Assembly (NCBI GenBank): GCA_009692425.1
Contig: SHZF01000017.1
Coordinates: 5,714-69,713 of the forward strand
Direction: 5' to 3'
DNA from: Myxococcales bacterium
Lineage (GTDB): Bacteria > Myxococcota_A > UBA9042
DNA length: 64,000 bases
Shown piece after piece: positions 17,658-44,133 of the stretch. Made by a program: the position numbers and the translations under genes. The notes under the pieces are model-generated. The model made no database searches. It was not told the DNA's origin and worked only from the letters and a program-made list of their open reading frames with translations. Numbering within the stretch: position 1 is the first letter of the stretch; each line of letters starts with the position of its first letter.

Positions 17658-17911
17658 GGGCCCGTGCAAGAATTACCCAGTCGACCGGCCATCTCGGTGT
17701 TGCATCGTGAAATCTCTTCGGCACGGTCCCTTGTCGCTGATCGGGTCGCCAAGTCCGCGGCGGAAGCCGACTCGCAGCGACACGAAGGCGATCGACTTGT
17801 TCTTGCGCGCGCCGTGACCCAGGCTGCCAGGCAGGCGAATTCGACAACCCGGCGAACCCGTGCGATGGGTGCCCCAGGCTGGCTGCGCGCAGCCCGCCGT
17901 ACCTGAGGTCC

Positions 17912-24300: not shown

Positions 24301-24711
24301 CTACTCGCTCCAGCTGGAAACCTTGATGTGAATCTGCTGGTTCTCGTCGATCTTCTCTTCTTCGAGGGTGTAGCCGCGCTTCGTCACCTCTTCCTTCACG
24401 GTGTGGTAAGCATAGCGCTGCACGACCTTGCGCGTGAACTGGTCCTGATTGTAGCCCGCCGTCATCTCGACGAATTCCCAGTCGGCCACGAACGCCACGT
24501 TGCCGGTTTCCGCATCCACTGTGACACCGATGTCGTACGTTTTTGAGGCGTGGATCGCGATCTTCGCGCCGGTGGTCTGGCCGAGGTAGCCCTTGACCTT
24601 GACCGTCTCGTTCTCGTGGGCCTGGGTGAACGCGAAGCCGAGTTCCTTGAGCACGAGCACCAGGCGCGCGACATTGTTGATTTTCGTCTGGACGGTCGTG
24701 AAGTGGGACAT
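24301..24711 (-). CDS. DUF1257-like protein
   Basis: From internal Met MSHFTTVQTKINNVARLVLVLKELGFAF... (CAT at 24709-24711). The 30 codons upstream in the ORF are low-complexity. The stop sits 6 nt after the AAA ATPase gene stop. Confidence 0.6.
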   Translation of the reverse strand: MSHFTTVQTKINNVARLVLVLKELGFAFTQAHENETVKVKGYLGQTTGAKIAIHASKTYDIGVTVDAETGNVAFVADWEFVEMTAGYNQDQFTRKVVQRYAYHTVKEEVTKRGYTLEEEKIDENQQIHIKVSSWSE

Positions 24712-24716
24712 GGGGT

Positions 24717-26378: not shown

Positions 26379-26386
26379 TCAATTTC

Positions 26387-28273
26387 CTACGATCCAAGAG
26401 ACTTCCGCACCGACGCCACCATGCGCTCCTGCTCCTTGAGATCCTGAGCGAGCACGATCGCGATGTCGTTCATCAGTTCGATGGAGTCGCCCAGATCGCC
26501 GGCCGCCGCCTTGTGCTTCTCCATCTGTTGCGCGTAGCGCTTGATCAGGTTGGCATTCGACGCCGACGCCGACACCGTATCGGCCAGCGCTTCGAGGGTC
26601 TCGGGCACATCGGCCGGCACGGTCGGCCCCTTGGGCGCTTGGTTCTCGGCGAGTGCTTCGTTCAGCCGCACTTCGGTGTCGCGCAGCTTGGCTTCGAGGG
26701 TCTCGACCCGCTTCTGGCCCTGGGCGAGTTCGGCTTCGAGCGCTTTCGTCGCCGCGCCCGTCGCCTCGACGGCTTCGAACTTGACCTGGGCGCGCGCGAG
26801 TTCCTTCTGCACGCTCGACAGTTCCTCGCGCAGTCGCTCGATTTCGCGCGCCTTCGCCTTGAAGTCGGGGTGCTCGCTCACATCGACCAACGCGGCCGGC
26901 TTGCGTTCGGCGGCTGTCTTGGCGGCCTCCAGTTCGGCCTTCATCGCCTCGGCACTGCGCTGGGCTTGCATGGCGCGCTCCTGCAGTTCGTCCACGCGGC
27001 GGGTCGCGTTGTGGTAGTCCTGCAACAACTGGCGCTTTTCGTGTTCCAAGTCGCTGATGCCGACGCCCATGCGGACCTGCCTGATTTCCATGTCCTTTTC
27101 GCGCAGGTCGATCTGCAATTGCTGGATCTTGTCTTCCTTCTCCTGAATGACTTCCTGTAGCAGGTTGATCTTGCGCTCCAGACGCCCTTGGTCGTTGGAC
27201 TCGCGGTTGAAGCTCGACTGCAGCGACTCATTCTCGTCGCGGGCGGCGCGCAGTTCGTACTCCAACAGGTCGAGCTGCCGCTGCAACTCCTCGATCTGTC
27301 GGTCTTTCTGCGTGATGCGGACCTTCAGCCCAGACAACTGCTCCGTGGCGTCGGTCGCCTTCTCGCGTGCGGCCTGGATTTGCTGCTCGAACTCGGTGGC
27401 GCGCCGCTCTGCCTCGAACAGCCGGTCTTCCTGCTCGCGCAATTCCGCCCGCGTCTTTTCGAGCTCCTTCTGGATGACCTGGTTGTGCTCCTTGAGCTTG
27501 ACGTACTTCTCGCTCAGGCCCTCCAACTCGACTGAATAGCGCATCGCGCGCGGCTCGATCGCCTTGACGTCGGCCTCCGCTCGCGTCGCCCGCGCCTCGG
27601 CCTCGGCGAGCGACTGTTCGAGCGCGCGCACCCGGCGGCCCAGTTCACCCGCGTCGCCACCGCCAGCGGACGTCGGCGCCGGTCGAGCGGTCGGCTGCGA
27701 TACCACGGGGGCCTGACCCGTCGGCACGGCAGTCCGCGCCGCGGCGGGCCGGTCCGCGGACTGCGGTTCGGGGCGGGCACTCGGACCGGCCGCCGGGCTC
27801 GGTTCGCGCCGGGTGGTCGCCGCGCCGATGGCGCCTGCGCGGGCCGCGTGCTGCTGCGTCTGCTTGTCGGCCACCAATGCGACGAGCTTGGCCTGATCTT
27901 CGGCCTTGAAGCCTGTGGTCGGCATTGCCTTGGCGACGGGTCGTTCGGCTTGCGGCGCACCGCCGCCATCCTTTTTCGATGAACCTGGGCGCAGGAAGAT
28001 TTCGAGCACTTCGCCGCAACGGACCGTGTCGCCCTCGCGGATGACTGCGCGCTGGGTGCGCTCGTTGTTGACGAAGCTGCCGTTCGACGAGCCGAGGTCC
28101 TTGATGTAGTAGCCGTCCTCGTCCCAACCGATGCGGCCGTGGTTGCGCGAAACGGTTGTCTCTTTCGAGTAGACGGTCGACCCCGGGTTGCGCCCGATGG
28201 TCACCGGTTCCATGTCCGGCCCCGCCGGGTGCTGGACCCAGTTGCCCGACACGTCGCGCCACTCAAGGTACAT
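26387..28273 (-). CDS. FHA-domain protein with about 400-aa coiled-coil
   Basis: N-terminal FHA motifs VTIGRNPGSTVYSKETTVSRNHGRIGWDEDGYYIKDLGSSNGSFVNNERT. The rest is a heptad-rich E/R/K/Q segment. Its stop lies 9 nt before the AAA gene start. Confidence 0.75.
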   Translation of the reverse strand: MYLEWRDVSGNWVQHPAGPDMEPVTIGRNPGSTVYSKETTVSRNHGRIGWDEDGYYIKDLGSSNGSFVNNERTQRAVIREGDTVRCGEVLEIFLRPGSSKKDGGGAPQAERPVAKAMPTTGFKAEDQAKLVALVADKQTQQHAARAGAIGAATTRREPSPAAGPSARPEPQSADRPAAARTAVPTGQAPVVSQPTARPAPTSAGGGDAGELGRRVRALEQSLAEAEARATRAEADVKAIEPRAMRYSVELEGLSEKYVKLKEHNQVIQKELEKTRAELREQEDRLFEAERRATEFEQQIQAAREKATDATEQLSGLKVRITQKDRQIEELQRQLDLLEYELRAARDENESLQSSFNRESNDQGRLERKINLLQEVIQEKEDKIQQLQIDLREKDMEIRQVRMGVGISDLEHEKRQLLQDYHNATRRVDELQERAMQAQRSAEAMKAELEAAKTAAERKPAALVDVSEHPDFKAKAREIERLREELSSVQKELARAQVKFEAVEATGAATKALEAELAQGQKRVETLEAKLRDTEVRLNEALAENQAPKGPTVPADVPETLEALADTVSASASNANLIKRYAQQMEKHKAAAGDLGDSIELMNDIAIVLAQDLKEQERMVASVRKSLGS

Positions 28274-28376
28274 GCGGCCAAGCCTCCGGGAGCGCGTACC
28301 CTGTACAGCCGAATTCGCGCGCCCCGAGTCTAGTGCAGCGTCAACCGCCCGTGCAAGGTACGGCGGGAACCGGTGT

Positions 28377-29567
28377 TCAGAAACCCTTCGCCATCACGGC
28401 GGGCATGCCGCGCTCGATCTCGCGCACGCTGTGGGTCATGACAGCCAAGCTGTGCCGGTCATAGGCTTCGACAACCATCGCGATGCCGATCTGCTCGTCG
28501 GGAAAGTCGCGCAGGTCCTTGACCTGGGCCCGCCGCAGCCCGTCGCCGCGCCACATGATCTCGAAGCGGTTGCCGCGCGCCACGTTGTCGTCGGCACCCT
28601 TGTCGATGTAGACGTAGTGCCAGGCGCCCGCCGCCGTTGTCTCGTGGTGGAAATCGACGATCGTGCCGACGAGTTCGACCTTGTTCGGCACCGGCTTCAC
28701 CAGTTGCAGTGGCTCGAACACGTTGGTGACGAGGTCGCCGCGCGAAATTTCGCTGTAGGCACGCGTCAGCAGCACCGTCGCCAGCGGGCGCGCGGTTGCC
28801 AGCACCTTGCCCTCGCCCAAGAAGTTGATCTTGAAGCCGACGACCTTGCCCGTCAGGGGATGCACGACCTCGCGCTCGACCCGGTAGAAGGTGAAGCGGT
28901 CGGCGTCGCGCACGCACGGCCCCGAGAACACTTCGGGTTCGGCCGGGTTCTTGTCGAGCGAGACGATCTCACCGTCCCTGGAGTCGGCCGCGTCGTCGGC
29001 CTTGGCCTTGTCGGTCGCTTCGCGGCAGCGCCGCATCAGGAAACGCACGTACACTTCATCCAACGTGCCGAGCATGTTGCGCTCTTCGCGGCTGGCCTCG
29101 ATCGTGCCCGACTCCCGGTAGTCGCGGCTGGTGATGTACCCCACGCGGCGCGCGAGCTCCGTTGGGGCCGACTTGACGCCTTCGTAGCGCGAGCCGGCAA
29201 ACGTCAGCGCCTTCTGGGCGATACCCTGCGGCGGCTTGCGCGACAGGTAGAGCAGATCGCCGGCGTAGATCAGGTGCGGATTCGTGATCTGCGGGTTGTA
29301 CGACCACAGCGACGGCCAATACCACGGCTCGTCGTAGAGGCCCTCGGCAATGGACCACAGCGTGTCGCCCGGCTCGACGACGTAGGTGCGCTCGCCGGCC
29401 ACGTTCGACTGCTCGACGCGGATGGCCGGCTGCGACACGTCGGGCACGGACACCTGGGCGGCGGCGAGGCCCGGCACAGCAGCCGCAAGCACAGCGGTCG
29501 CAAGCACGGCGCTTGCAAGCACAGCGCTCGCGTGCGCGGCGATGGCGGCGGTGGCGCGCGCGCTCAT
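28377..29567 (-). CDS. LysM-domain secreted protein
   Basis: Signal peptide, then LysM motif YVVEPGDTLWSIAEGLYDEPWYWPSLWSYNPQITNPHLIYAGDLLYL. Large C-terminal domain of unknown function. Confidence 0.7.
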   Translation of the reverse strand: MSARATAAIAAHASAVLASAVLATAVLAAAVPGLAAAQVSVPDVSQPAIRVEQSNVAGERTYVVEPGDTLWSIAEGLYDEPWYWPSLWSYNPQITNPHLIYAGDLLYLSRKPPQGIAQKALTFAGSRYEGVKSAPTELARRVGYITSRDYRESGTIEASREERNMLGTLDEVYVRFLMRRCREATDKAKADDAADSRDGEIVSLDKNPAEPEVFSGPCVRDADRFTFYRVEREVVHPLTGKVVGFKINFLGEGKVLATARPLATVLLTRAYSEISRGDLVTNVFEPLQLVKPVPNKVELVGTIVDFHHETTAAGAWHYVYIDKGADDNVARGNRFEIMWRGDGLRRAQVKDLRDFPDEQIGIAMVVEAYDRHSLAVMTHSVREIERGMPAVMAKGF

Positions 29568-30553
29568 GGCTCGCCCCTCGGTTTCTGCAGTTCACCGGCG
29601 GCCAACTGCCCTGCCGGCGTCGTCGGGAACTGGCGCACCAGCTGCCGCAGCACGTCGTGGGCACCCTTGTCGTCGCCGAGTTGGCTGTACGAGCGCCCGA
29701 GCTTGAGCAGGGCGTCGGGCACCTTGTTCGCGCGCGGGTACTCCTTGCAGACCCGCAAGAAGGCCTGGGCCGCCTTGAGCCACAAGGACTGCGCGTAATA
29801 GCTCTCGCCAATCCAATAGAGCGCGTTGTCGGCGAGCTCGTGGTCGGGGTAGAGGCGCTGCAAGTTCTCGAATTTCGTGCGTGCCGGCTGCAACTGCCCG
29901 CTGTCGAGCAGGGCCTTGGCGTGGGTGTAGAGCGCGGCGGCGGGGTCGAGGTTGGGGCGCAGCGGCACGGCCGACGTGTCCTGCTGTGGCGGCGGGTCGT
30001 CGGCAGGTCCGCTGGGTCCATTGGCGGGTTCGGGGTCGGCGCCGGTACCGGGCACGAGGATGTCGGGGCTGCCATCGCGCCGGGCGCTGCGGACGGGCTC
30101 CGTCGCCGTGCGGCCAGGCTGGGCCCCTTCGATCGGCGGCACGGGCCCGGGCTCGACGCGCACGGTCGGCAGCCGCGGAATCCAACCGTCGTCTCGGCTG
30201 CCATCGGCGCGGCGCCCGCCATCGACGCGGGCACTGTCGACCCGCGCGGTGTCGATCTTCTCTTCGATCATGACGAGGCGGTTGCGAAACTCATCGAACT
30301 GCACGCGAGCGGCGGCCTGGCTGCGCTTGAGGTCATCGAGTTCGTCGCGCAGGGCCCGCGTATCGCTTTGGGCCTGGGCCAACTGAGCACCGCTGCAGGC
30401 CCATGCCGACACGGCGCACGCGATCGCCACAACGAGCGCGGCGCGCTGGCGCCAAGTGGTGCCACGGGCGTGTCGGGTGGCGGGGTCAGAGGCGGGCAGA
30501 AGTTCCGTTCGCACGCAATCTCGCTCGGGCGCTGGGAAGGGCCCCGCGGCCAT
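29564..30553 (-). CDS. YbgF/CpoB-like periplasmic TPR protein (TM anchor, coiled coil, TPR)
   Basis: TM segment AALVVAIACAVSAWA, a coiled-coil, then C-terminal TPR-like repeats (YPDHELADNALYWIGESYYAQ ... YPRANKVPDALLKLGRSYSQLGD) as in Tol-Pal-associated CpoB. The start is uncertain. Confidence 0.55.
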   Translation of the reverse strand: MAAGPFPAPERDCVRTELLPASDPATRHARGTTWRQRAALVVAIACAVSAWACSGAQLAQAQSDTRALRDELDDLKRSQAAARVQFDEFRNRLVMIEEKIDTARVDSARVDGGRRADGSRDDGWIPRLPTVRVEPGPVPPIEGAQPGRTATEPVRSARRDGSPDILVPGTGADPEPANGPSGPADDPPPQQDTSAVPLRPNLDPAAALYTHAKALLDSGQLQPARTKFENLQRLYPDHELADNALYWIGESYYAQSLWLKAAQAFLRVCKEYPRANKVPDALLKLGRSYSQLGDDKGAHDVLRQLVRQFPTTPAGQLAAGELQKPRGEP

Positions 30554-30610: not shown

Positions 30611-31045
30611 TCAAGATTTGCCGGACGATCCGCCCGCTGCGGCGCGCAAAACCCGCCACGCAGCGCGGACGATGGCAACCGGTCGAGGGGCGACGGTGGC
30701 CCACGCGAGGCCGGTGCGCCGGGCGATTGCAGCCACCACGCCCATGCCAGGGACCGGGACCCGCCCGCCTCGCCACTCGATCGCGGCCACGCGACCGATG
30801 ATCGCAGACGCGGGCAGTTCCGGGTCGGCGGCCAGGTTCGTATCGCCGCGCGTGCGGATGCGATTGCCGTCGATGGCACGCACGCGGTGGACGAACACGG
30901 CGCCCGTGCGCGTGCCGACGAAAGCAACGACGTCGCCCGGACACAAGGCGGCAACTCCCACGCGCTCCAGGCCGACGCGCAAGGGGGCGGCGAGCGGCCA
31001 CATCGAGCGGCCGGCGACGTCGTACCAGTCCAATGGGTCGCACAC
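30611..31045 (-). CDS. S26/S24-family (signal-peptidase-like) serine peptidase, last gene of the rSAM cassette
   Basis: GRSMWPLAA matches the signal-peptidase Ser box (SM-P). CPGDVVAFVG...VHRVRAIDGNRIRTRGDTNLAADPE resembles the S26/S24 beta-barrel, including the conserved basic residue. Start tentatively GTG (VCDPLDWYDVAGRSMWP) at 31045. The longer 489-aa ORF overlaps the rSAM gene out of frame and is rejected. Confidence 0.5.
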   Translation of the reverse strand: MCDPLDWYDVAGRSMWPLAAPLRVGLERVGVAALCPGDVVAFVGTRTGAVFVHRVRAIDGNRIRTRGDTNLAADPELPASAIIGRVAAIEWRGGRVPVPGMGVVAAIARRTGLAWATVAPRPVAIVRAAWRVLRAAAGGSSGKS

Positions 31046-31131
31046 TTTGCCGGGAGGCGTCACGTTGCCGGGGAGCGTGTCGTTCACTTTGCCGGGGAGC
31101 GTGTCGTTCACTTTGCCGGGGGCTGCACGCG
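31040..31131 (-). repeat. three to four degenerate copies of a 24-bp unit spanning the rSAM stop codon
   Basis: cactttgccggggagcgtgtcgtt occurs perfectly at 31085-31108, with degenerate copies immediately before and after. On the minus strand the rSAM 3' end ...CCGGCAAAGTGA is re-iterated as ACGACACGCTCCCCGGCAAAGTGA. Confidence 0.7.
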
Positions 31132-33160: not shown

Positions 33161-33334
33161 TCAGTCCGTCGTGGAGTTAAGGGTGTCGCAGCCAGGGATG
33201 TTGGTACCCAGCAATTCGAGCAGTTCGGCGTCGACCGTCTGGATCGCTGGCGCCGCGTAGGGAGCCTTGGCGGGCACACCTGTGCTGCCGTCGCTCTCGC
33301 CCTGCGGCGTGTTCGGAGAGTCGTTCATCTGCAT
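33161..33334 (-). CDS. candidate RiPP precursor peptide (57 aa)
   Basis: MQMNDSPNTPQGESDGSTGVPAKAPYAAPAIQTVDAELLELLGTNIPGCDTLNSTTD. AGGAG RBS (reverse complement of 33340-33344) 6 nt upstream. Stop TGA at 33161-33163 lies 3 nt before the HprK-like start. Leader-like amphipathic ELLELL segment; single Cys in a C-terminal GCDTLNSTTD tail. Confidence 0.5.
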   Translation of the reverse strand: MQMNDSPNTPQGESDGSTGVPAKAPYAAPAIQTVDAELLELLGTNIPGCDTLNSTTD

Positions 33335-33393: not shown

Positions 33394-36300
33394 TCAGTAC
33401 ATGATCACGAGCGACCCGTCCGTGGATCCGATGGCCGCGTCCGCGACGCCGTCGCCCGTGAAGTCGTCGAGCGGCGCGATGCCCACACCGCCCCATGAGT
33501 TCGAACCGATGCCCCACTTCGGGTCGCCGGGCTTGAACGGGTTGCCGAATTCGATGTCGGCCACGGCGTAGCTCGCGGCAGTTCCCGTCGCCGAAGCTCC
33601 GGCCGCGCCGGGCCGCACCAAACCGTGCCGAATGGTCACGATGGACGATGCGCCTGGCATGAAAAACGCCGGCCGGCCGTGGATCAGGTCGACACTGCCG
33701 CCGCCAGCCGCGCCGACCTTGCCGAAGCGCTGCAGCCCGGCCACGAATGCGTCGGCCACAAACCCGTGGGGAACCTGGTAGAGCCCCGTTTCGCCGGGCA
33801 CCGGCGTAGTTAGCAGGAACGCCACGCCGCCGAGCGATTTGTTCAGCGCACTCCCGCGCAGCCAGTAGATGCCGCCCGTCTTGCCGAACGAAGAGCCGCC
33901 CTGCTGCTGGATCACGAGATCGACCAGGCCGTCGCCATCGAACTCGACGGCATCCATCTGGAAGCCGATCACGTTCGCGCCGAACTGCGTCGCCGACGTC
34001 CCCGCGCTCACGTGGACGGCACTCGCGCTCGCTGGCAGCGTGGTGTCGTACTGGGCAAACTCGAGCACCTGATCCCCCGCCGCCGGCCGCCCCTTGACGA
34101 GGCGCACGCACTCCGCCGACGTCGACTGTTGGATGCCCACGTCTTCATACTGGGTGCCCTTGCCGTCGCCATCGAGCAGCAGGTTGCCGAGGCCCCAGAT
34201 CGCCGCCCCGAAGACTGGCGCACTGACCGGATTCTTGATGTTCAGCGTGATGACATTGTTGTCCTTGCGCTGCGTGGCGTTGTCGATGTCGATCGTCAGC
34301 GTCTTGCCGTCCGCGAGCGTCGCGTTGCCGGGCACGATCAGGACACGGGTGTAGGTGACCGTCGCCGTCGGAAAGGTGGTGACGCCGAACGAGTCGATCG
34401 GCAGGCCGGCCGCCGACTTGGCTCCGGTGAAGTTGCCGGTCACGTTCATGCGCAGGACGCCGAACGGCAACGGGTTCACGATGCCCGTCACGATCAGCGC
34501 CGGCGTCTTGCCCAGCGTGCCGGCCTTCTTGCCCAGGTACACGTGCACGCTGCGCAGCTTGCCCACGCCGATGCCGTTGCCGACCACGAGATCGCCGATG
34601 CCGTCGCCGTTCATGTCGGCTGCGCGCCCCGTCGTGGCACCCAGGCCGCCGTCCTTGTTGTCGAAGCAGGTGTAGCCAGTGCCGTCGAGGCTGTCGATCG
34701 TCAGCGCCGCCAACAGGCCGTCGGCGCCCGCCTTGCGGCCGTAGACGACACACAGGGGAGCTTTTTCGCCGCCGCCCGCCACGAAGTCCGCCAGGCCGTC
34801 GCCGTTGAGATCGCCGACTGGGAAAGCCCGCGAACGGAACTCGGGCACGTCGAACAGGCCCTTGGTCACCACCTGCAGGTAGCGCAGCCGCAAGTCCTTC
34901 GTCGTGATGACGTTGGAAACCGGCGAGCGGTTGCCCGCGGCGTCGACCGCCTGGATCGCGAATGCGTACTGGGTGATGCCGTCGTCGACCATCGGATTGA
35001 ACTTGCAGACGTCCGAGCCCACGCGCGGGTCGGGACCGTCTACCTGAATCGTTTCGTTGCCGCCAGCGTCCGTCGGGGTCGAAATCTTCGCAAACGGCAG
35101 GGCCTTGGCATCGCACGCCGCCTTGAACTCGGTCTCGTTGGCGAGCGCCGTCTTCTTGACGTAGCGCACGTCGTAGCTCGCCGCCTTGCCCGTCAGCCCG
35201 TCGTCGCCAACCGCCGTGAAGCGCAGCGCGATGCCGGGCAGCCGCGGCTTGAGGTCGCTCGCCTGCAAGGGCAGGAGCACGGGCGCGGCCGGCGGCGTCC
35301 AGTCCGCCTTGATCGCAATGGAGGCCTCGGCCGTATTGCCCAGCGCATCTTGCACGGTGGCGCGCACGATGTTGGTCGCGTTCTCCTGCAAGGTCGCGTG
35401 CTGCACCTCGACGGTGGCCGTACCGGCGGTGTCGAACGTCTTCGGCAACGTGACGGACTTCTGTGCCAGGTCGGCAGCCGCGCCACCCGCGACCGTGCGC
35501 TGCAGCGCAGTCACCTTGCCACCCTTGAGGCCGCTGTCGGTGACCTGCAAGAGCAAGTGGAGTTGGTGGCCGGGCGTGGCGGGGTCGGTGTCGGACGGTT
35601 TGCCGACCGTGCCGCTGACGCCCCCTGGGGTCGCGACGCTCTGCACGGTGCCTGCAACCCACTGTGCCACGGGATTCGTCAAGTCGGCGAGCACACCGAT
35701 CGCCCCCGTGCTGCCCTTTGCGGTGCCGACGGTCACGCCCTCGAGCGAGAACTTGGCGCCATCGGCCACCGTCACATCGAAGGTGGCGACGGACGCGGTC
35801 GGCGCCTTGCTCGCGACCTCCTTGCCATCCTTCAACAGCTGGACCGCCGTGACCGTGCCGCACGGGCCGAAGAACTCCACCATGACCTTGGCAGCCACGC
35901 TCGCGCAGTTCTTGCCCTTGTCGGCGCAGGACTGTGTCGTGAAGGCGCCGCCTTGCGGAAGCCCCTTCATCGACAGGAGGCAGCCCGACAGCTTGACGGC
36001 GAAACCCTGCTCGACCTTGGCCGTGTTGCCCGAGGAGTCCTTCGCCGTCAGCCGCGCCGAATAGTTCGGGGTGGCGCCGAACGGCACGGTCAGCAAGATC
36101 GTCGGCTCCTGCTTGCCGGGTGCGGTGACCGTGCCGCTGCCCACGGGCGCGTAGCCGGCACACTTGGCGAACGTCGCATCGCAGTCCGCGCCCAATTCGA
36201 GCGTCCATGATACAGCGTCGGTCGTGGTGAACTGCACCGTGACCTGGTAACCGCCCACGGCGGGCGCCGCGTCGGCAGCGTCAGCAAACGTCGCACCCTG

Positions 36301-39300
36301 CGCAGGTGCATCGATCTTCAACACGGGGGGCTTGGTATCGACCCCAACGACGGCCGGCGTCGTCTGGACCGTCGCGGTGTTGCCGCACGCGTCGATGAGC
36401 TCTGCCGTCAGTTCATGCTGACCGTCACCGAGCACGCCGTACTTCGCGTGGGGATACTTGGTCGCGCCGCTGGCGAACGCTTCGGTCGCCTTCGTCACGC
36501 CGGCGTCCTTCAACACCGCGGCTTTGCCCTCGACATCGACCGTGCCGGCGTCCGCGATCAGTTCGATGTCGAGTGGATCGCCCGCCAGCAGGGTCGCCTT
36601 GCCTGTAGCCGGCACCGCAAACGTCGCCGCCGGCTTCGTCGTGTTGACTTGCCACGTCTGCGCGGCCGACTCCTTGCCCTTGTTGCCGACCGCGTCCAGC
36701 GCCTTGGCGACGACCGTGACGGCCCCTTCGACCGGGATCGGCACGTTGAGGGTGACGGTCTTGTTCTGCGACTGCGCCGTCGCCGCGATGGCATCGTTGA
36801 CCAGCACGAACACCAGCGCATCCTCGTTGGCCAAGGTGGCGACGAACTTGAACGTGCCGCCGGCCTTCGTGTCGGGTGCGGCGTCGAGCTTGCCCGACAG
36901 GCAACCGGCGGGCACATCGGCAGCGCTCGGCCCGACCAGCGACGCCAGCACCGGCACGATGCTGTCGAGCACGATGGTGCGGTCCTTGCCGGTGATGGAC
37001 GGGCTGCCGAGCGACGACGTCCAGTCGATGCCGGTCCCTGCGTCGGACGTCTCGGCGGTGAAGTGGTACTTGCCGTCCGTCAGCGCCGACATGTCAAAAT
37101 CGATCAGGTTGTTCTGCGACTTCGTGATCGAGACGACTTCGTTGTACCCGGCTTGCTTGCACGGGCCCTTGCCGACGCCCGGCGTGTCGGAGCACAGCCG
37201 CACCAGCGCGCCCGACGGCATGCCGATCACGTTGACGGTGATGGTCTTGGACGAATCCGCGTTCCACGGGGTCGCACACGTTCCGCCCGCGCAGACGCCG
37301 AGGCCGCACTCCGCCGTCGCCGTGCACGGCTTGGCCACGATGCCCAGGGGGGACTGGAACTGGATTTCAGGCTGCTTCGAAATCACAGTCGCGACCACGG
37401 TCTTCGAAGCCGGGTTGCCCGCCGCGTCTGCGGTCGCGAACACGATCTTGACCTTGTTGCCGTCGGGCAGCGTGACGACCCCGAAGCTCACCGCACCGAT
37501 CTGACCGTCGGACACGTCGGCAGCGACCGTGGCCGGATAGCTGCCGTTCTTGGCGCCGTTGTCGTCGAACACGTCGGCAACGACCTTCGTGCCGGCGCTG
37601 ACGCCCGACACCTGCACCTGCAGGTTGACCTGCATGCCGTCCGCCGGGTTCTGGTTCACGTCGTCGAGCGCCGCCAGCGTGAAGGTCGCGGCGCCGCCCT
37701 TGGCCGGCGAAGACAGGCTGCCGAAGACCGGCGCGGTGCGGTCGATCTTGATCGTGACGACTTTGGATGTCGCCGTCTGGTTGGCCGCATCGACCACCTT
37801 GGCGGTCAGTTCACACGTCGTCTGATCGGCCAGCACGATGCCGGTGAACGGCGCTTTGCCCGCAGCTACGACGCCCGCCACCGCCTTGGATGCCGCGCCG
37901 CACTTGACGGTCAGGGTCACCGCGCTGTCGTCCTCGGCATCCGTCGTCGCCACATCGACCTGGGTCACACAGTTCGCCACGCCTGGCAGACACGCAGCCG
38001 CCGTCAGGTTCAGGTTCGACCCGTCGGTCGGCGCGGTGATCGTGGCCGTGGGCAACTTGTTCTTGAAGCCGAGGTCGATCGCCGCGGAGTAGCCGATCGC
38101 CTTGGGCGTGGCGGCGAGGTAGGCGCCGACTTGCAGCGTAGTTGAGCCCTTCGACAGGCCGCTGATTTCGAACGAGTACGTGCCATCGCCGACATCGGTC
38201 ACCGGGGCAGCGACCTTGGCGCCGTTGACGAGCACGTCGAGCGTCGCGCCGGGCATGGCCGCGCCGTTGGGCTTGGCGACCTTGACCTTGACCGTCAGCT
38301 TGTCGGTGATCACGCTGCCTGAGCCAAGCGGTTGCAGGAACGTGACGACCGGCGCCTCGGAAACGAGCGTGATCGTGCTGACCGCCGTCTTGGTGACGTT
38401 GCCGACCGTGTCGGTGGCGGTCGCATGGACCGCATTCGGTCCCGCCTGCAGCGAGATGCCCTCGAAGACCACCTTGCCCTTGCCGAGCAGGCCGGATTGA
38501 CAGGAAACCTTGGCGCCGCCGACGTATACGCACGCACTGGCCGCGTCGGCACTGGTCACGGTCAATTCGACATCGATCTGGTAGCCGGGCTTGGGGTCCG
38601 AGTCGAGGTCGTCGGCAGCCGTCAGGGTCGCTTTCGAAGGCAGCGTGATGGCGACGCTCGGCCCCTTGGAGTCGAGCGTGAAGTTGCGCTTGACGGTGGA
38701 ACAGGTCTGCTCCGAAGCGACGTTGCCGAGCAGATCGGTGGCGTCGAACGTGATGACGTAGGCGCCATCGGGCAGCGTCTCGGCCGGCGCTCCGACTTGG
38801 AGGGCGAGCGTGGTCGACAGCAGACCCTTCTTGGGCTGGCCGACCGCCAGCGCCGGATACGCGCCCCCGCCCGGCACGGCAATGACGGCCTTGACGTCGC
38901 GGTTCTCGAGGTTCGTGGTCGTCAGCGCCACGTTGAACGACGCCGTGGTCAGCGTGACGTCGCCTGCCGGCAGCGCCACTTTCAAGCATGGCGCGGGCAG
39001 GGCCACGGTGACGGCAACGTCCTTTTCCGACTGGCTGGGGTTCGGCGCATTGTCCTTGGCCATGCACGTCACAGCGGAGCCCAGGCTCTCCACGTCGATG
39101 ACGACGGGGACCGCCAACGAAGTCGCGGCTGCGTCGGAAAACTTCGCCGAGCCCGATGCCGTCGGCGGATACGCCACGTTTGGCCCGGACTTGCGGCAGA
39201 AGATCGACACCTCCGTGCTGAGGTCCGGTGCGGCCTGAAAGTTCACCGTCACGGTCGTCTCGTACGTGAGCGCCGTTTCGGGCTTGCCGTCGTTCTTGGC

Positions 39301-40530
39301 GTACAGCACCGAGCCGCCGACCGGGTCTGCGATGACCATCTTCCCCTGCCCGGCAAAGACCACGTACGTCGTCGACAGCGACTTTTCGAGGCCGCAGCCA
39401 TTCTTCGCGGTGATCTGCAGCGCGTAGCTGCCCGATGACGGAAACGAGACGGGAATCGAGAACGTATTGTCGATGTCGAGGCTGACGGCCGGCAGGTCCT
39501 TGCCGTCGAGCTTGGCCGTGATGCCGTTCTTGTCGGCCGTCGTCAGCGTCGATGCGGTGCCGACGATCACGGTCTGGATGCCGGGCGCGGCCGCGTCCTT
39601 GTCGTCGCTGTTCTTCAGCACATTCTTCTTGTCCGGCGTGGGCTGCAGGATCGTCAGGGTCGGCGCCTTCGTGCCGACGCTCACCGCCAGCGGGTCCGAA
39701 GGGGTCGAGGGGCGGCCCGGATGGTCCTCGTCGCTGACGAACGCCTGCACGGTCGCGGTCTTGCCGTCGACTTCATCGTTGCTGGGCGGCGTGAGCGTCG
39801 CCGTGATGAGTGCGGAACCGCCGACGAGCAACACCTTGGCCGTATCGGACTTCGCGCCCTCCGTCGTCGTGACCGCGAGCCGGGCGTGCGTGCAGCCGAC
39901 CGACTTCGTCGTTACCTTGAAGTTGGCCTGCAGGCCGGGCGTCTGAGGGTCCACGTCCGTATTCTGGCAGCCGGCCGTGAACGCCTTGACGTCGGCCAGG
40001 CAACTGTCGGTGCAGTCGAGCTTGATCGACTTGATCTCTGACGAGGCGTCGCCGCCGGGCACCTTCGCGACCACGGAGATGTTCGGAGCCACCGTGCTGC
40101 ACTCCAGCGTGATCTTGAGGCGCGCTGCATTGCTCTGCGCCTTGGCGGTCGCCTTCGTCACGCCGTCGATCTGGACTTGGAGGTCGGTGCCGTTCGGCAC
40201 GTTCGTCGTCGTCACAACGACATCGACCTGCACGCCCAGTTCCGGGTACTTGTCTGCGTCGAGTGCGACCGTCGCCGTCGATGCGGTTTCGAGCACGTTG
40301 CCGTCCTTCGTTTCGACGAAAAAGGCAACGGTGGGCTTGACGACCGGGACGTCCTGCGTGTCGCCGCCGCCCGCGTCCGACGTCGCGTCGGCGGGGCACG
40401 CCACTTTGCCGCAGGGCCCCCCGACAGGTTCGTCATCGCTACAGGCTGCGAGTCCCGCGCACAGGCTGGCGGCGACAAGCGCTCGCAAGGACACGGAAAC
40501 ATGGCCGTGCTGCTTGAGTACCCCGATCAT
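33394..40530 (-). CDS. giant cell-surface lipoprotein (2378 aa) with Ig-like repeats and C-terminal FG-GAP/VCBS repeats
   Basis: AAGGAGAG RBS, then MIGVLKQHGHVSVSLRALVAASLCAGLAAC (lipobox). A long beta-rich T/A/V/G-rich repeat region follows. C-terminal Ca-binding FG-GAP-like motifs: DLNGDGLADFVAGG, DMNGDGIGDLVVGN, FDGDGLVDLVIQQ, DDFTGDGVADAAIGS. Plus-strand ORFs across this span are antisense shadows. Confidence 0.8.
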   Translation of the reverse strand: MIGVLKQHGHVSVSLRALVAASLCAGLAACSDDEPVGGPCGKVACPADATSDAGGGDTQDVPVVKPTVAFFVETKDGNVLETASTATVALDADKYPELGVQVDVVVTTTNVPNGTDLQVQIDGVTKATAKAQSNAARLKITLECSTVAPNISVVAKVPGGDASSEIKSIKLDCTDSCLADVKAFTAGCQNTDVDPQTPGLQANFKVTTKSVGCTHARLAVTTTEGAKSDTAKVLLVGGSALITATLTPPSNDEVDGKTATVQAFVSDEDHPGRPSTPSDPLAVSVGTKAPTLTILQPTPDKKNVLKNSDDKDAAAPGIQTVIVGTASTLTTADKNGITAKLDGKDLPAVSLDIDNTFSIPVSFPSSGSYALQITAKNGCGLEKSLSTTYVVFAGQGKMVIADPVGGSVLYAKNDGKPETALTYETTVTVNFQAAPDLSTEVSIFCRKSGPNVAYPPTASGSAKFSDAAATSLAVPVVIDVESLGSAVTCMAKDNAPNPSQSEKDVAVTVALPAPCLKVALPAGDVTLTTASFNVALTTTNLENRDVKAVIAVPGGGAYPALAVGQPKKGLLSTTLALQVGAPAETLPDGAYVITFDATDLLGNVASEQTCSTVKRNFTLDSKGPSVAITLPSKATLTAADDLDSDPKPGYQIDVELTVTSADAASACVYVGGAKVSCQSGLLGKGKVVFEGISLQAGPNAVHATATDTVGNVTKTAVSTITLVSEAPVVTFLQPLGSGSVITDKLTVKVKVAKPNGAAMPGATLDVLVNGAKVAAPVTDVGDGTYSFEISGLSKGSTTLQVGAYLAATPKAIGYSAAIDLGFKNKLPTATITAPTDGSNLNLTAAACLPGVANCVTQVDVATTDAEDDSAVTLTVKCGAASKAVAGVVAAGKAPFTGIVLADQTTCELTAKVVDAANQTATSKVVTIKIDRTAPVFGSLSSPAKGGAATFTLAALDDVNQNPADGMQVNLQVQVSGVSAGTKVVADVFDDNGAKNGSYPATVAADVSDGQIGAVSFGVVTLPDGNKVKIVFATADAAGNPASKTVVATVISKQPEIQFQSPLGIVAKPCTATAECGLGVCAGGTCATPWNADSSKTITVNVIGMPSGALVRLCSDTPGVGKGPCKQAGYNEVVSITKSQNNLIDFDMSALTDGKYHFTAETSDAGTGIDWTSSLGSPSITGKDRTIVLDSIVPVLASLVGPSAADVPAGCLSGKLDAAPDTKAGGTFKFVATLANEDALVFVLVNDAIAATAQSQNKTVTLNVPIPVEGAVTVVAKALDAVGNKGKESAAQTWQVNTTKPAATFAVPATGKATLLAGDPLDIELIADAGTVDVEGKAAVLKDAGVTKATEAFASGATKYPHAKYGVLGDGQHELTAELIDACGNTATVQTTPAVVGVDTKPPVLKIDAPAQGATFADAADAAPAVGGYQVTVQFTTTDAVSWTLELGADCDATFAKCAGYAPVGSGTVTAPGKQEPTILLTVPFGATPNYSARLTAKDSSGNTAKVEQGFAVKLSGCLLSMKGLPQGGAFTTQSCADKGKNCASVAAKVMVEFFGPCGTVTAVQLLKDGKEVASKAPTASVATFDVTVADGAKFSLEGVTVGTAKGSTGAIGVLADLTNPVAQWVAGTVQSVATPGGVSGTVGKPSDTDPATPGHQLHLLLQVTDSGLKGGKVTALQRTVAGGAAADLAQKSVTLPKTFDTAGTATVEVQHATLQENATNIVRATVQDALGNTAEASIAIKADWTPPAAPVLLPLQASDLKPRLPGIALRFTAVGDDGLTGKAASYDVRYVKKTALANETEFKAACDAKALPFAKISTPTDAGGNETIQVDGPDPRVGSDVCKFNPMVDDGITQYAFAIQAVDAAGNRSPVSNVITTKDLRLRYLQVVTKGLFDVPEFRSRAFPVGDLNGDGLADFVAGGGEKAPLCVVYGRKAGADGLLAALTIDSLDGTGYTCFDNKDGGLGATTGRAADMNGDGIGDLVVGNGIGVGKLRSVHVYLGKKAGTLGKTPALIVTGIVNPLPFGVLRMNVTGNFTGAKSAAGLPIDSFGVTTFPTATVTYTRVLIVPGNATLADGKTLTIDIDNATQRKDNNVITLNIKNPVSAPVFGAAIWGLGNLLLDGDGKGTQYEDVGIQQSTSAECVRLVKGRPAAGDQVLEFAQYDTTLPASASAVHVSAGTSATQFGANVIGFQMDAVEFDGDGLVDLVIQQQGGSSFGKTGGIYWLRGSALNKSLGGVAFLLTTPVPGETGLYQVPHGFVADAFVAGLQRFGKVGAAGGGSVDLIHGRPAFFMPGASSIVTIRHGLVRPGAAGASATGTAASYAVADIEFGNPFKPGDPKWGIGSNSWGGVGIAPLDDFTGDGVADAAIGSTDGSLVIMY

Positions 40531-40642: not shown

Positions 40643-40936
40643 TCAGACCGGTTGGCGCTCCAGCACGCGGCGGACGACCAACTCATCCAAGAAATTCAAG
40701 ATGTCTGCTAGCGCGCGCGCCAAGCCGACGTCGTAGCGTGCGGCAACGAGCCCAGCCAGGGCCACGGCATCGGCCGTGCCGGCGGCGATGGCTTCGAACA
40801 CATCGACGGCGGTGCCGGGCAGCAGGCGGTGAAACGCGCGGTCGTCCGTCACGACGAAGACTTCGCCCCCGACGCAGCGGTGTGCGGCGAGTGGATGGAC
40901 GCGGTAGCGAACGGCGGTGTCGGTTGGGGTGCTCAT
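40643..40936 (-). CDS. PqqD-family protein (RiPP recognition element-like peptide chaperone)
   Basis: MSTPTDTAVRYRVHPLAAHRCVGGEVFVVTDDRAFHRLLPGTAVDVFEAIAAGTADAVALAGLVAARYDVGLARALADILNFLDELVVRRVLERQ matches the PqqD length and pattern. The longer 251-aa ORF N-terminus is R/P-rich and rejected. Confidence 0.65.
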   Translation of the reverse strand: MSTPTDTAVRYRVHPLAAHRCVGGEVFVVTDDRAFHRLLPGTAVDVFEAIAAGTADAVALAGLVAARYDVGLARALADILNFLDELVVRRVLERQPV

Positions 40937-41425: not shown

Positions 41426-42097
41426 TCATACGGGCTGGTGGCGCTCCGCGTGGGAATCCTGCAGGTAGCGGGGCAGCAGGTCGTGTGCAGCAAGGCTGGG
41501 CAGGGATTCTGCAAGCTCCGCGATCGCACGTGCGACGGGGGCATCGGCGACACCCACGTCGGTGGCTGCCGGGCCGGCTGCGGCGCGGAGCCACCCTGCG
41601 GCATGCCACCCCGAACCGGCCACTGCCACCGCGCGGCCGCTGGCACGGTGCGGCCACCACCCTGCGAAATCGTCTGCCGTCAGGAGCGTTTCTTCACATG
41701 CGATGCCGGCGTCGGACCAGCCGACGTACGCGACGCCGGTGCGGGCGGGCAGGGCCACCGCGCACGGCCCGGTCCAGCCCGCAGCACGCAGCGCAGCGAC
41801 GAGGGTCGGCAGAGACCCGACGCCGACGCAAGGCACGGCGTGGGCCCAGGCGAGGGCGCGCGCGGTCGCCAGGCCCATGCGCAAGCCGGTAAACGAGCCA
41901 GGTCCGATGTCGCACGCGATGCGCTGCAAGTCCGCGGCATCCAGTCGGGCCGCCGCCAGCAGGGCCCAGATCGCCTCGGTGAGTGGCCGTGCCTGGCCGC
42001 GCGCCACCATGCAGGTGCGCCCTGCAGCGAACCCCGCGTCTGTGCGCAGCCACACGCCGACCGTGGGCGTGGACGTCGTGATCGCCAACACGTTCAA
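41426..42097 (-). CDS. tsaB: tRNA threonylcarbamoyladenosine biosynthesis protein TsaB (YeaZ)
   Basis: MNVLAITTSTPTVGVWL...IACDIGPGSFTGLRMGLATARALAWAHAVPCVGVGSL is the inactive Kae1/TsaD paralog pattern. Confidence 0.8.
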   Translation of the reverse strand: MNVLAITTSTPTVGVWLRTDAGFAAGRTCMVARGQARPLTEAIWALLAAARLDAADLQRIACDIGPGSFTGLRMGLATARALAWAHAVPCVGVGSLPTLVAALRAAGWTGPCAVALPARTGVAYVGWSDAGIACEETLLTADDFAGWWPHRASGRAVAVAGSGWHAAGWLRAAAGPAATDVGVADAPVARAIAELAESLPSLAAHDLLPRYLQDSHAERHQPV

Positions 42098-42107
42098 CGG
42101 ACGGCCC

Positions 42108-43994
42108 CTACCGGATCAGGTTGCTGGCCCAGCTCTGCAAGCCTTCGAGCACGCGCTCCGTGTCGTTCTTCATCACGACGACGAAAAGCAGGCCGAGAAA
42201 GCTCATCCCGACGTAGGCGGCGATTTGGCGCGCGCGCAGGCTCACCGGTTCGCGCTTGATGGCTTCGATGAGCAGGAACAGCAGGTGCCCGCCGTCGACC
42301 AACGGGATCGGCAACAGATTGAGAATCGCCAGGTTGACGCTCAGCCACACCATGAGCTCGAAGAAATACCCCCAGCCGAGGTCGGCCGTCTTCGATGCCA
42401 GTTGGGCCATGAAGATGGGTCCGCCAACCTCCTTGACCGGCACGTGCCCGCGGAAGAGGCCGGCGACGGTCAAGACGGTCACCTGGAGCGCTTCAGTCAT
42501 GCGATCCCGCGTCGAGCGCACGGCGTAGGCCAGCAACGCCGGGTTCTCGATCATCTCCGGCTCGACGTAGTCCTGGACACCGTTCGCTCCAAAGGCCAGG
42601 GCCGGCCGGGCGTCACGGCCGACATCGACGGCAAGCTGCAGCACCGCGTCGCGATCCGCCCAGCCCCGCTGCAGCACCGAGGCGCCGTCGGGTTGGGCCG
42701 CGAGCCAGGTCTCCAGTGCGGTGGCGGGCGGCCGCTGGCGCGCCACGACCGGCTGCAGGCGCGCGACATCGGCGGCGCGGAACATGTGGCGCACCCGCAG
42801 CACGTGGGGCCGCTCCAATGCCTTGTGCATTTTGACGAGCTGGTCTTCGGCCGACAGCGTGCGCAGCGTGGGGTCGGCGCGCACGTCGTCCCACGGCTTC
42901 GAAAGCACGTCGTGCACCGCAAGGAAGCTGCGCGCGGGAACGCCATCGACCGCGACGACCTCGTCGCCCGGCACGAGACCTGCCCCCCGATCGGCCGGCG
43001 ACCCCTTCTCCACGGGGCCGACGATCAGGTGCGCGGGCAGCAGGCCGAGCGCCTCCATCGTCGTCGCCCCCTGCGGCTGAATGCGCACCGTGCGCAGGGC
43101 CGGGTCATGTTGGCGCTCGAAGGCTTGCTGCAACTCGCTGCGCGCGACGGGGGCGTCGAGCCGCAGGTTCGCCACGTCGACGACCAAGGGCGCTCCCGCC
43201 GCGAGCGCGGTGCGCAGCGTGTCGGCCAGTTCGTACAGCCGCAGCGTGGGCCGGCCACCGACGCGCGCGATGCGGTCGCCGCTGCGGATGCCCGCTTGCC
43301 ATGCTGGAGTGCCGGGCCGCACGGCGACGGTCGTGTTCTGGGCGTCGGGGCGCACCTCGATGCGGCCCACGATGTCGATCAGCCCGAGTTCGGGCAGGCG
43401 CACCTGACGGTGACTGGCCGGAGTAATCGCCACACTGTGCCGGCGACCGGCGCGTTCGTATTCCACTGCCGCGCGCCGCCCCGGCCGTGCGGCGATCTGG
43501 CGGCGCAGATCCTCGAACGTGACGATTTCTTCGCCATCGATGCGCACGATGCGATCGCCCGGACGCAGGCCGGCGCGGTCGGCAGGACCGTCGGGCATCA
43601 CCGTGCCCAGCCGGCTCGACATGACGCGGCCATCGACCAGCAACGCGCCAAAAAAGAGGATGAACACCGGCAAGATGATGTTCGCGATCGGACCCGCCGC
43701 GACGATCAGGGCGCGCCGCCATACAGGCTTGGCGGTAAAGGCGTCGGGCGCCAGGTTCGCGGGTTCGTCGGGTGGAGCGCTCGGGTCGTCGCCCAGCATC
43801 CGCACGAAGCCGCCCAGCGGCAGCGCGCGCACGGCGTATTCGGTGCCGCCTCGCTCCCAGCGCAGCACGGTGGGGCCGAAGCCGATCGAGAACGACAGCA
43901 CGCGCACGCCCATCCAGCGCGCGACAAGAAAGTGGCCCAACTCGTGGAACAGCACGAGCGGCACGAGCAATGCAAGAAAGTAGAGCACGAACAT
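42108..43994 (-). CDS. rseP: RIP site-2 metalloprotease RseP
   Basis: HELGHFLVAR (HExxH) in TM1, PDZ domains (GPADRAGLRPGDRIVRIDGEEI; GSPADRGAGLVPGDEVVAVDG), and C-terminal LPIPLVDGGHLL motif. Start at the internal Met (MFVLYFL, CAT at 43992-43994). The upstream 226 codons of the ORF are noise. Confidence 0.85.
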   Translation of the reverse strand: MFVLYFLALLVPLVLFHELGHFLVARWMGVRVLSFSIGFGPTVLRWERGGTEYAVRALPLGGFVRMLGDDPSAPPDEPANLAPDAFTAKPVWRRALIVAAGPIANIILPVFILFFGALLVDGRVMSSRLGTVMPDGPADRAGLRPGDRIVRIDGEEIVTFEDLRRQIAARPGRRAAVEYERAGRRHSVAITPASHRQVRLPELGLIDIVGRIEVRPDAQNTTVAVRPGTPAWQAGIRSGDRIARVGGRPTLRLYELADTLRTALAAGAPLVVDVANLRLDAPVARSELQQAFERQHDPALRTVRIQPQGATTMEALGLLPAHLIVGPVEKGSPADRGAGLVPGDEVVAVDGVPARSFLAVHDVLSKPWDDVRADPTLRTLSAEDQLVKMHKALERPHVLRVRHMFRAADVARLQPVVARQRPPATALETWLAAQPDGASVLQRGWADRDAVLQLAVDVGRDARPALAFGANGVQDYVEPEMIENPALLAYAVRSTRDRMTEALQVTVLTVAGLFRGHVPVKEVGGPIFMAQLASKTADLGWGYFFELMVWLSVNLAILNLLPIPLVDGGHLLFLLIEAIKREPVSLRARQIAAYVGMSFLGLLFVVVMKNDTERVLEGLQSWASNLIR

Positions 43995-44133
43995 GGGGCC
44001 AGCCCGACGCCGGGCGGTCGCCCCAGCCTGACGCTGCCAAGATAGCCCGTTCGGCGTCGGCTCGCCACCCGATTGCAAGCCGTGGGCTGGCACGGTAGAA
44101 GAATCGGCCGGACGCCTTGCGCCCACGGAGACC

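Follow-up and report, generated by a model that had tools for sequence, protein, structure and literature searches.

A PqqD-family gene, a giant lipoprotein gene and a radical SAM enzyme gene in a predicted six-gene peptide-modification operon of Myxococcota

The LPP clusters of Bacillota (LppA/B/K/S/N/D) combine a RiPP recognition element (RRE; RiPP, a peptide made by the ribosome and modified after translation) with an HprK-like kinase and a SipW-like peptidase (PMC13381572). The LPP leader carries the pattern YxxPxVLxHQxIxFETxxS, whose YxxP part is essential for binding by the RRE. The RRE in turn is required for cleavage after T-1 by LppS, a peptidase similar to signal peptidase I (SpI), and LppK polyphosphorylates Ser3 of the LppA core (PMC13381572). 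The more general motif [Y/W]xxPx[L/V/I/F/A] is bound by discrete RREs of both the lasso and LPP systems, and LPP precursors may be as long as 200 aa (PMC13381572). LPP is the closest characterised system to the Myxococcota cassette described here, which was found in a single 64-kb stretch of a Myxococcales bacterium genome (contig SHZF01000017.1). This stretch is called the window below, and window coordinates refer to its whole length; its GC content is about 69%. On the minus strand of the window, a gene encoding a 97-aa protein of the PqqD family is followed by a giant lipoprotein gene, the gene of a 57-aa candidate precursor peptide, and the genes of an HprK-like P-loop protein, a radical S-adenosylmethionine (rSAM) enzyme with a SPASM domain, and a SipW-like peptidase (Table 1). 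We consider it probable that the 97-aa protein is the RRE of this six-gene operon, and that the giant gene entered the operon early, has been retained there as a co-transcribed member, and was lost only rarely.

The likeness to LPP covers the discrete RRE (matching LppB, 9x8z, at E=1.6e-8), the HprK-like P-loop enzyme and the archaeal-type Ser/His peptidase, in which Ser and His are 39 residues apart, exactly as are S29 and H68 of LppS. The precursors share the YxxPx(V/I/L) leader motif, and in 24 of the 42 precursors compared a Ser or Thr lies 19 residues from the Tyr (Thr44 in the window), which is the distance of Ser3 in LppA. On the other hand, the cassette precursors lack the remainder of the LPP leader consensus (VLxHQxIxFET). 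The nucleoside-triphosphate transferase and the MsbA-type exporter of LPP are absent from the interval between the PqqD and peptidase genes, both in the window, the rest of which was not scanned for them, and in loci L004-L008 of the comparative set described below. The Myxococcota cassette adds the rSAM/SPASM enzyme, a conserved core Cys and a 2378-aa lipoprotein gene that separates the RRE gene from that of the precursor; the host belongs to Myxococcota, and the cassette seems to be inherited vertically in a housekeeping envelope neighbourhood. What is new is the combination, in Myxococcota, of an LPP-like triad with an rSAM/SPASM enzyme and with a giant lipoprotein gene kept inside the operon. 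No paper describing the combination of RRE, HprK-like protein, rSAM/SPASM enzyme, peptidase and giant lipoprotein was found in the searchable literature. With this locus, a triad hitherto known from Bacillota (RRE, HprK-like kinase and SipW-like peptidase) would extend to Myxococcota and be joined to radical SAM chemistry.

Other systems are similar in part. PqqE works with a separate RRE, and the cassette likewise pairs a discrete PqqD-family RRE with an rSAM/SPASM enzyme lacking its own; PqqE is the second-best solved homologue of this enzyme. However, the cassette operon contains no pqqB or pqqC, its precursor is unrelated to PqqA, and its RRE is closer to the lasso B1 proteins than to PqqD. 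A bona fide PqqD of a pqqABCDE pathway was rejected, as the partner rSAM enzyme scores 69 bits against the PqqE (TIGR02109) cut-off of 381, and the precursor has no family match and a different motif. The lasso B1 proteins TbiB1 and TfuB1/FusB1 are the best solved RRE homologues over the full length, and their leaders have the same [Y/W]xxPx[L/V/I] motif, but the cassette operon encodes neither a B2 cysteine protease nor a lasso cyclase, and removal of the leader is assigned to the SipW-like serine peptidase. The sactipeptide and ranthipeptide maturases (SkfB, SuiB, AlbA, StsB) resemble the rSAM enzyme in the full set of SPASM cysteines and in the conserved Cys of the substrate, SkfB being the best match. 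They differ in having a fused RRE; the cassette enzyme reaches the cut-off of no family model, and its chemistry is predicted. Finally, the best NCBIfam matches of the P-loop protein are ScmC, HprK_rel_B and HprK_rel_A, and the rSAM enzyme is weakly similar to ScmE and to the GeoRSP rSAM protein, which recalls the SynChlorMet and HPr-rel-A cassettes. The scores (27.8 against a cut-off of 125 bits for ScmC, 76.6 against 400 for ScmE) place the cassette outside the SynChlorMet family, of which a literature search found no published characterisation. The SynChlorMet cassette also includes a PqqD-like gene.

The distance from the RRE gene is 7.3 kb to the precursor gene and 8.4 kb to the rSAM gene. 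RRE-based genome mining usually expects the RRE next to the modifying enzyme, or as a part of it. Tools that examine a limited neighbourhood would split or miss a cluster whose RRE lies 7.3 kb from its precursor.

The PqqD-family gene and its cassette

A preliminary description of this DNA, made from the letters alone, had noted the 97-aa PqqD-family open reading frame (ORF) and its separation from the rSAM cassette. The family assignment holds, as residues 41-90 match Pfam PqqD (PF05402) with 26.4 bits against a gathering cut-off of 23.4, and the neighbouring genes, including tsaB and rseP upstream, are also as described there. A search (hmmsearch) of the six-frame ORFs of the 64-kb window found no second PqqD-like ORF. 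Orthologues with 32-55% identity occupy the same position in 30 species-level genomes, and thus the ORF is not a chance one. A family profile (A2) was built from 29 orthologues and more distant relatives of the 97-aa protein. It matches TbiB1 (5v1u, E=6e-12) over profile positions 11-93 of 97, TfuB1 (6jx3, E=8e-11), LppB at the E-value given above, PbaB1 (9x90, E=3e-7) and PqqD (5sxy and 3g2b, E=4e-5). The homology to structurally defined leader-binding RREs therefore extends over the full length of the protein.

The rSAM enzyme, in turn, lacks such a domain. Its CxxxCxxC motif is at residues 36-43 of the 394-aa query of alignment A1 and is preceded by about 35 aa only. The enzyme aligns to SkfB and SuiB only past their fused N-terminal RREs, and to PqqE from chain residue 27. 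Thus it has a PqqE-like architecture and is predicted to need a discrete RRE.

Species-representative genomes were scanned with the rSAM family as the anchor, since word-indexed searches with PqqD and ScmC gave only two and three close relatives, respectively. The scan yielded 79 loci, referred to by L numbers. In the 32 core loci, where the rSAM enzyme is 38-58% identical to that of the window, the order PqqD, giant gene (about 2350 aa), precursor, ScmC-like gene, rSAM, peptidase is invariant; the PqqD gene precedes the giant gene in all 30 core Myxococcota loci whose contig extends far enough. The full order was also found in the distant Myxococcota/Bradymonadia loci L041, L049, L053 and L054 (rSAM identity 31-39%). 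Five other loci (L044, L045, L046, L048 and L052), in which the upstream region is truncated or rearranged, have the giant gene directly beside the precursor or the ScmC-like gene. A metagenome scan with a narrower PqqD alignment (A6) gave five loci, three of them new, and PqqD homologues led to three further short contigs; the giant gene is directly downstream of the PqqD gene in all of these.

Overall, the giant gene is present at 34 of the 36 Myxococcota loci with a visible junction between PqqD and precursor. The two loci without it, L043 and L050, have the order M16-M16-PqqD, a gap of 141 nt, and then precursor, ScmC-like gene, rSAM and peptidase. Locus L053 shares the M16 pair and PqqD with them, and here a gene encoding a 1850-aa Big_13/FG-GAP lipoprotein sits exactly at the junction between PqqD and precursor. 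The outgroup loci L058 (Omnitrophota) and L078 are compact cassettes with YxxP-type precursors, with PqqD beside the rSAM, ScmC or precursor gene and with no giant gene.

The gene upstream of PqqD varies. It is tsaB in most loci, a gene of a CDF-type transporter in L015, L019 and L028, an amidohydrolase-like gene on the opposite strand in L030, M16 peptidase genes in L043, L050 and L053, and another gene in L092. Since this neighbour varies, the downstream cassette is constant, and the PqqD gene stays with the cassette in the loci without the giant gene, the PqqD gene tracks the cassette, and neither tsaB/rseP nor the giant gene. Indeed, it is co-located with the precursor and the enzymes in every locus with a visible upstream region. 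The full-length RRE homology, the absence of any other RRE from the window, an rSAM enzyme lacking its own, the leader motif of the precursor and the adjacency in relatives without the giant gene together identify the PqqD-family gene as the predicted stand-alone leader-binding subunit of the cassette. The outcome that the preliminary description had named as refuting, a PqqD-like gene tied to tsaB/rseP and never to HprK/rSAM genes in relatives, is the opposite of what was observed.

As for expression, the signals in the window are those of an operon. The giant gene starts 112 nt past the PqqD stop codon, as in the preliminary description, and the precursor gene starts 59 nt past the stop codon of the giant gene, which had been given there as 60 nt. 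The gap between the precursor and P-loop genes is 2 nt; the P-loop and rSAM genes overlap as GTGA, and so do the rSAM and peptidase genes. The spacers between the giant and precursor genes in the relatives are 29-69 nt, and the PqqD and giant genes overlap by a 4-nt start/stop in L005 and L053. When the two spacers of the window were scanned for promoters and terminators and folded as RNA, nothing exceeded shuffled controls, and no terminator-like site was found in them. Because of the short spacers, the start/stop overlaps and the lack of terminator-like sites, the giant gene is probably co-transcribed with the cassette as an operon member.

The peptide and its predicted maturation

If the LPP and lasso systems serve as a guide, the 97-aa RRE would bind the YAAPAI(QT) segment of the leader and would present the peptide to the Ser/His peptidase for removal of the leader. 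It would probably also present the peptide to the P-loop enzyme, with phosphorylation of a Ser or Thr near LLx[S/T] as the likely result, and to the rSAM enzyme, which would be likely to form a cross-link at the conserved Cys. As the nearest solved relatives of the rSAM enzyme form thioether or C-C bonds, Cys49 is its most plausible target.

The comparison of 42 precursors gives the consensus (R/K)x(P)[Y/W]xxPx[V/I/L]x[S/T]...LLx[S/T]xC, after which comes a variable tail, often with a Cys. Within the leader motif, all 42 precursors have Pro at position 4 and one of V/I/L at position 6, and 40 have S/T at position 8. The first Cys is 19-25 residues past the Y/W in 41 of 42. This conservation is what would be expected of a real precursor, and the 57-aa ORF is predicted to be one. 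The segment LLASGC was considered as a lipobox and rejected: the residue at -3 is mostly Ala or Gly, the one at -1 differs between precursors (G, Q, V, S, T, P), and there is no preceding signal peptide.

Table 1. Features of the predicted operon in the window
Feature	Position	Strand	Start codon	Basis
Predicted discrete RRE, PqqD family, lasso-B1 type, 97 aa	40643..40936	-		Pfam, profile matches, synteny
Giant lipoprotein, 2378 aa, Ig-like Big_13/Big_3_3, C-terminal FG-GAP repeats	33394..40530 (stop codon 33394-33396)	-	ATG 40530	Pfam, lipobox
Predicted precursor peptide, 57 aa	33161..33334	-	ATG 33334	Small ORF directly upstream of ScmC-like gene, kept in 42 loci
Predicted leader recognition motif YAAPAIQT ([Y/W]xxPx[V/I/L]x[S/T])	33236..33259	-		Comparison of 42 precursors
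Cys49, sole Cys of the window precursor	33188..33190	-		Comparison of 42 precursors
ScmC-like P-loop protein, PEPCK/HprK fold (modelled), 291 aa	32283..33158	-		Walker A, AlphaFold2, Foldseek
rSAM/SPASM enzyme without fused RRE, 392 aa	31108..32286	-	GTG 32286	Pfam Radical_SAM, SPASM
Signal-peptidase-I-like protein, archaeal/endoplasmic reticulum type, 166 aa from GTG, probable leader peptidase	30611..31111	-	GTG 31111	Motifs, profile

The enzymes agree with these roles to different degrees. In the P-loop family the Walker A motif GxSGxGKT is invariant (G154, S156, G159, K160 and T162). Matches to TIGR04249 (ScmC) and to HprK_rel_A/B are weak and below the cut-off in 23-29 of the 31 family members, and PF27840 (ScmC) is the precomputed Pfam label of the P-loop protein of a relative. 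The AlphaFold2 model has a mean confidence (pLDDT) of 90.8, and its Foldseek matches are PEPCK (E=1e-7, TM score about 0.5) and the HPr kinase/phosphorylase 1knx (E=2e-4). The modelled fold is thus of the PEPCK/HprK type, and a kinase role may be suggested by analogy. The ScmC-family hidden Markov model also weakly matches an ORF at window positions 17907-18296 on the plus strand (E=1.7e-4, 16.6 bits); this is probably a mere P-loop match.

The rSAM enzyme matches Pfam Radical_SAM (4.7e-14) and SPASM (7.8e-13). Its invariant cysteines are C36, C40, C43, C247, C265, C304, C307, C313 and C316. The closest solved homologues are SkfB (9e-32), PqqE (4e-26) and SuiB; the solved homologues also include anSME. 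In the peptidase family the motifs GxSMxP, HR(V/L/I) and GD, supplying Ser, His and Asp, are invariant. The family profile matches SEC11A/SEC11C at E=2e-6 with the catalytic Ser and His aligned. TIGR02228 (sigpep_I_arch) is matched by 18 of the 22 members and SipW by six; the window protein taken alone scores 26.8 bits against a cut-off of 51.85. The peptidase seemingly lacks an N-terminal membrane anchor, the catalytic Ser being about 35 residues from the start. None of the cassette proteins scores up to the cut-off of any NCBIfam model, and the precursor, the ScmC-like gene and the peptidase are each single in the window. PADLOC shows only generic similarity to rSAM proteins and viperin, which gives no support for a known defence system.

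Some observations weigh against the assignment of the 97-aa protein as the RRE of this pathway, or against the steps proposed for it. In L042 and L047 the rSAM and peptidase genes are kept with no PqqD, ScmC or precursor gene within 10 kb; as the pair stands alone there, the rSAM enzyme is not always tied to a PqqD-type RRE. One clade has Cys in place of the Ser/Thr at position 19, which makes the phosphorylation site uncertain. Every functional step is a prediction from homology and gene order. To these may be added, for the history of the giant gene given below, that the tree used there was built from distances by a simple method and has no support values.

The lone rSAM-peptidase pairs have different surroundings. 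In L047 (487-6437) the pair follows TonB/TolA-like, TolB and OmpA/Pal genes, and in L042 (8839-11566) it follows a gene with a VWA domain.

The giant lipoprotein gene

The giant protein begins with a candidate lipobox (LCAGLAAC|SDDEP, read from the translation), and a simple pattern scan found a lipobox in 24 of 34 orthologues. The orthologues are 36-45% identical in the core loci and 23-31% identical in the distant loci, always at the same position. The architecture of Big_13 domains, FG-GAP repeats and lipobox is kept even at 23-31% identity, and the last FG-GAP repeat is kept at the extreme C-terminus.

The comparison of orthologous loci for presence or absence of the giant gene, proposed in the preliminary description, also bears on its suggestion that this gene was inserted into an ancestral PqqD-precursor-HprK-rSAM cassette. 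Compact cassettes in L043, L050 and the outgroups, together with a giant gene at the exact junction in L053, support the view that the ancestral cassette was compact and that the giant gene was inserted into it. In a neighbor-joining tree of the rSAM enzymes, L043 and L050 fall together with L048, L052 and L053, deep within the clade with the giant gene, whereas the outgroups lie outside this clade. Thus L043 and L050 are more likely secondary losses. The giant protein of L053 is 25-32% identical to the others, and so is about as diverged from them as its rSAM enzyme is from theirs. No remnant of a giant gene was found in the L043 and L050 spacers, which have no homology to each other. The suggested insertion is supported and may be refined. 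With moderate confidence, and as far as sequence comparison goes, we propose as the most parsimonious history a compact ancestral cassette into which a lipoprotein gene was inserted once, early, between the genes of RRE and precursor, and from which it was rarely lost afterwards. The giant gene is an ancient and almost always retained member of the operon.

The L043 spacer (8812-8952, 141 nt) contains a short tandem repeat, CACGACACCTGAAAGATGCGGTGG, in about two copies; it resembles neither the L050 spacer nor the ends of the L053 giant gene.

Whether the lipoprotein also acts together with the peptide, the second suggestion of the preliminary description, is a separate question. The most economical reading is that the mature peptide and the lipoprotein are functionally coupled, and we regard this as about evenly balanced. 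It is favoured, though not proven, by the long retention of the giant gene, which is kept at 34 of 36 junctions while both flanks change, by the short spacers and by the start/stop overlaps. The strongest competing explanation accepts the PqqD protein as the RRE and takes the giant gene for an unrelated passenger, kept by vertical inheritance and by the cost of disrupting an operon; we put this somewhat short of an even chance. Gene-order conservation alone is indeed no proof of coupling, because the flanking housekeeping genes (RseP-TsaB upstream, TPR-LysM-FHA-AAA downstream) are also syntenic in many loci, including most of the core ones. Moreover, the giant gene has its own strong ribosome-binding site, its product has no leader-like motif, its clean loss in L043 and L050 left a complete cassette, and the outgroup cassettes manage without it. 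A passenger is harder to reconcile with a junction kept exactly in 34 of 36 loci at rSAM identities down to 31-39% and giant-protein identities down to 23-31%, with both flanks rearranged several times, or with genes that overlap PqqD in some lineages and lie within 29-69 nt of the precursor.

Functional coupling, if accepted, would allow a more specific proposal, which we hold to be possible but doubtful. The machinery would make a modified peptide that is not a secreted antibiotic and serves as a dedicated partner (ligand, cofactor-like subunit, anchor or maturation factor) of the surface lipoprotein of about 2400 aa. If this is true, the locus would be a vertically inherited, near-housekeeping envelope module of freshwater Myxococcota, in which a RiPP pathway is harnessed to a giant surface protein. 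Given the vertical inheritance in a conserved envelope neighbourhood and a lipoprotein gene that is almost never lost, the cassette is a tractable candidate system, in which a modified ribosomal peptide may have a physiological role at the cell surface instead of an antibiotic one.

Alternatively, the giant lipoprotein could itself be a substrate of the kinase, the rSAM enzyme or the peptidase, with the small ORF as one of two targets. Enzymes of the rSAM/SPASM type can modify full-size proteins, as suggested also by anSME among the solved homologues, and LPP precursors can reach 200 aa. However, the giant protein contains no [Y/W]xxPx[LIV]x[ST] motif, it has a lipoprotein signal for export whereas the peptidase seems to be unanchored, and cassettes exist without it; such a role is very unlikely. 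Still less remains of the possibility that the PqqD-like protein serves the giant lipoprotein, for instance as a chaperone, or rseP-tsaB, and is unrelated to the rSAM cassette. Its position would agree with this: the giant gene comes directly after it in nearly all loci, and tsaB lies before it in most. Yet the gene stays with the precursor and the enzymes where the giant gene is absent (L043, L050, L058, L078), its upstream neighbour varies, and the motif for this type of RRE is in the precursor and not in the giant protein, so that this explanation is close to refuted. A recent insertion of the giant gene into this genome or genus, by a mobile element or horizontal transfer, has only the unusual gene order in its favour and is refuted by the occurrence of this arrangement in every one of 30 core loci and also in distant Myxococcota/Bradymonadia loci, by a GC content along the gene (0.665-0.691) within the range of the window, and by the absence of visible repeats or mobile-element genes at its borders.

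Flanking genes and variant loci

In the window the RRE gene is preceded by tsaB (41426-42097) and, further upstream, by rseP. The cassette as a whole is flanked by conserved envelope and housekeeping genes (window 24301-30553 and 41426-44000; also L004-L040). The downstream flank encodes a TPR protein (with matches of the TPR_6/YfiO type, similar to YbgF/CpoB), a LysM protein, an FHA coiled-coil protein and an AAA ATPase; in the relatives it also carries DUF1257 and DUF2997. Such flanks are atypical of a RiPP-like cluster and suggest vertical inheritance.

A 24-nt tandem repeat (window 31060-31121 and also 31043-31078; 2.6 copies, 97% matches) is located exactly at the junction of the rSAM stop and the peptidase start. 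If the peptidase starts at the GTG codon listed in Table 1, its N-terminus contains the sequence LPGKVNDT in repeated form, encoded by this repeat.

A pair of M16 (insulinase-type) peptidase genes precedes PqqD in L053 (474-3091), L043 (2912-8533) and L050 (2976-8525), and a gene for an S41/PDZ peptidase of about 1000 aa lies further upstream in L043 and probably also in L050. M16 pairs serve as leader peptidases in some RiPP pathways. In the clade of L043, L050 and L053 the M16 pair may be part of an extended cassette.

In the Omnitrophota locus L058 (138-7145), a gene encoding a CYTH protein (triphosphate tunnel metalloenzyme) lies between the peptidase-like and ScmC-like genes, and the peptidase-like protein carries a long extension at the C-terminus (335 aa). 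The presence of the CYTH gene may point to phosphate chemistry, which would fit the role of an HprK-like kinase.

Two loci have altered arrangements of the cassette itself. In L052 (1-6765) the giant, precursor and ScmC genes are on the strand opposite to rSAM and peptidase, with a second ScmC-like match beside the rSAM gene. In L045 (6733-11014) about 2.2 kb are inserted between the ScmC-like gene and the rSAM gene.

Six loci with the full Myxococcota-type arrangement (L014, L021, L030, L036, L038 and L040) come from contigs whose public titles read 'Klebsiella pneumoniae' or 'uncultured Enterobacteriaceae bacterium'. These titles, on contigs of metagenome-assembled genomes, are almost certainly taxonomic mislabels.

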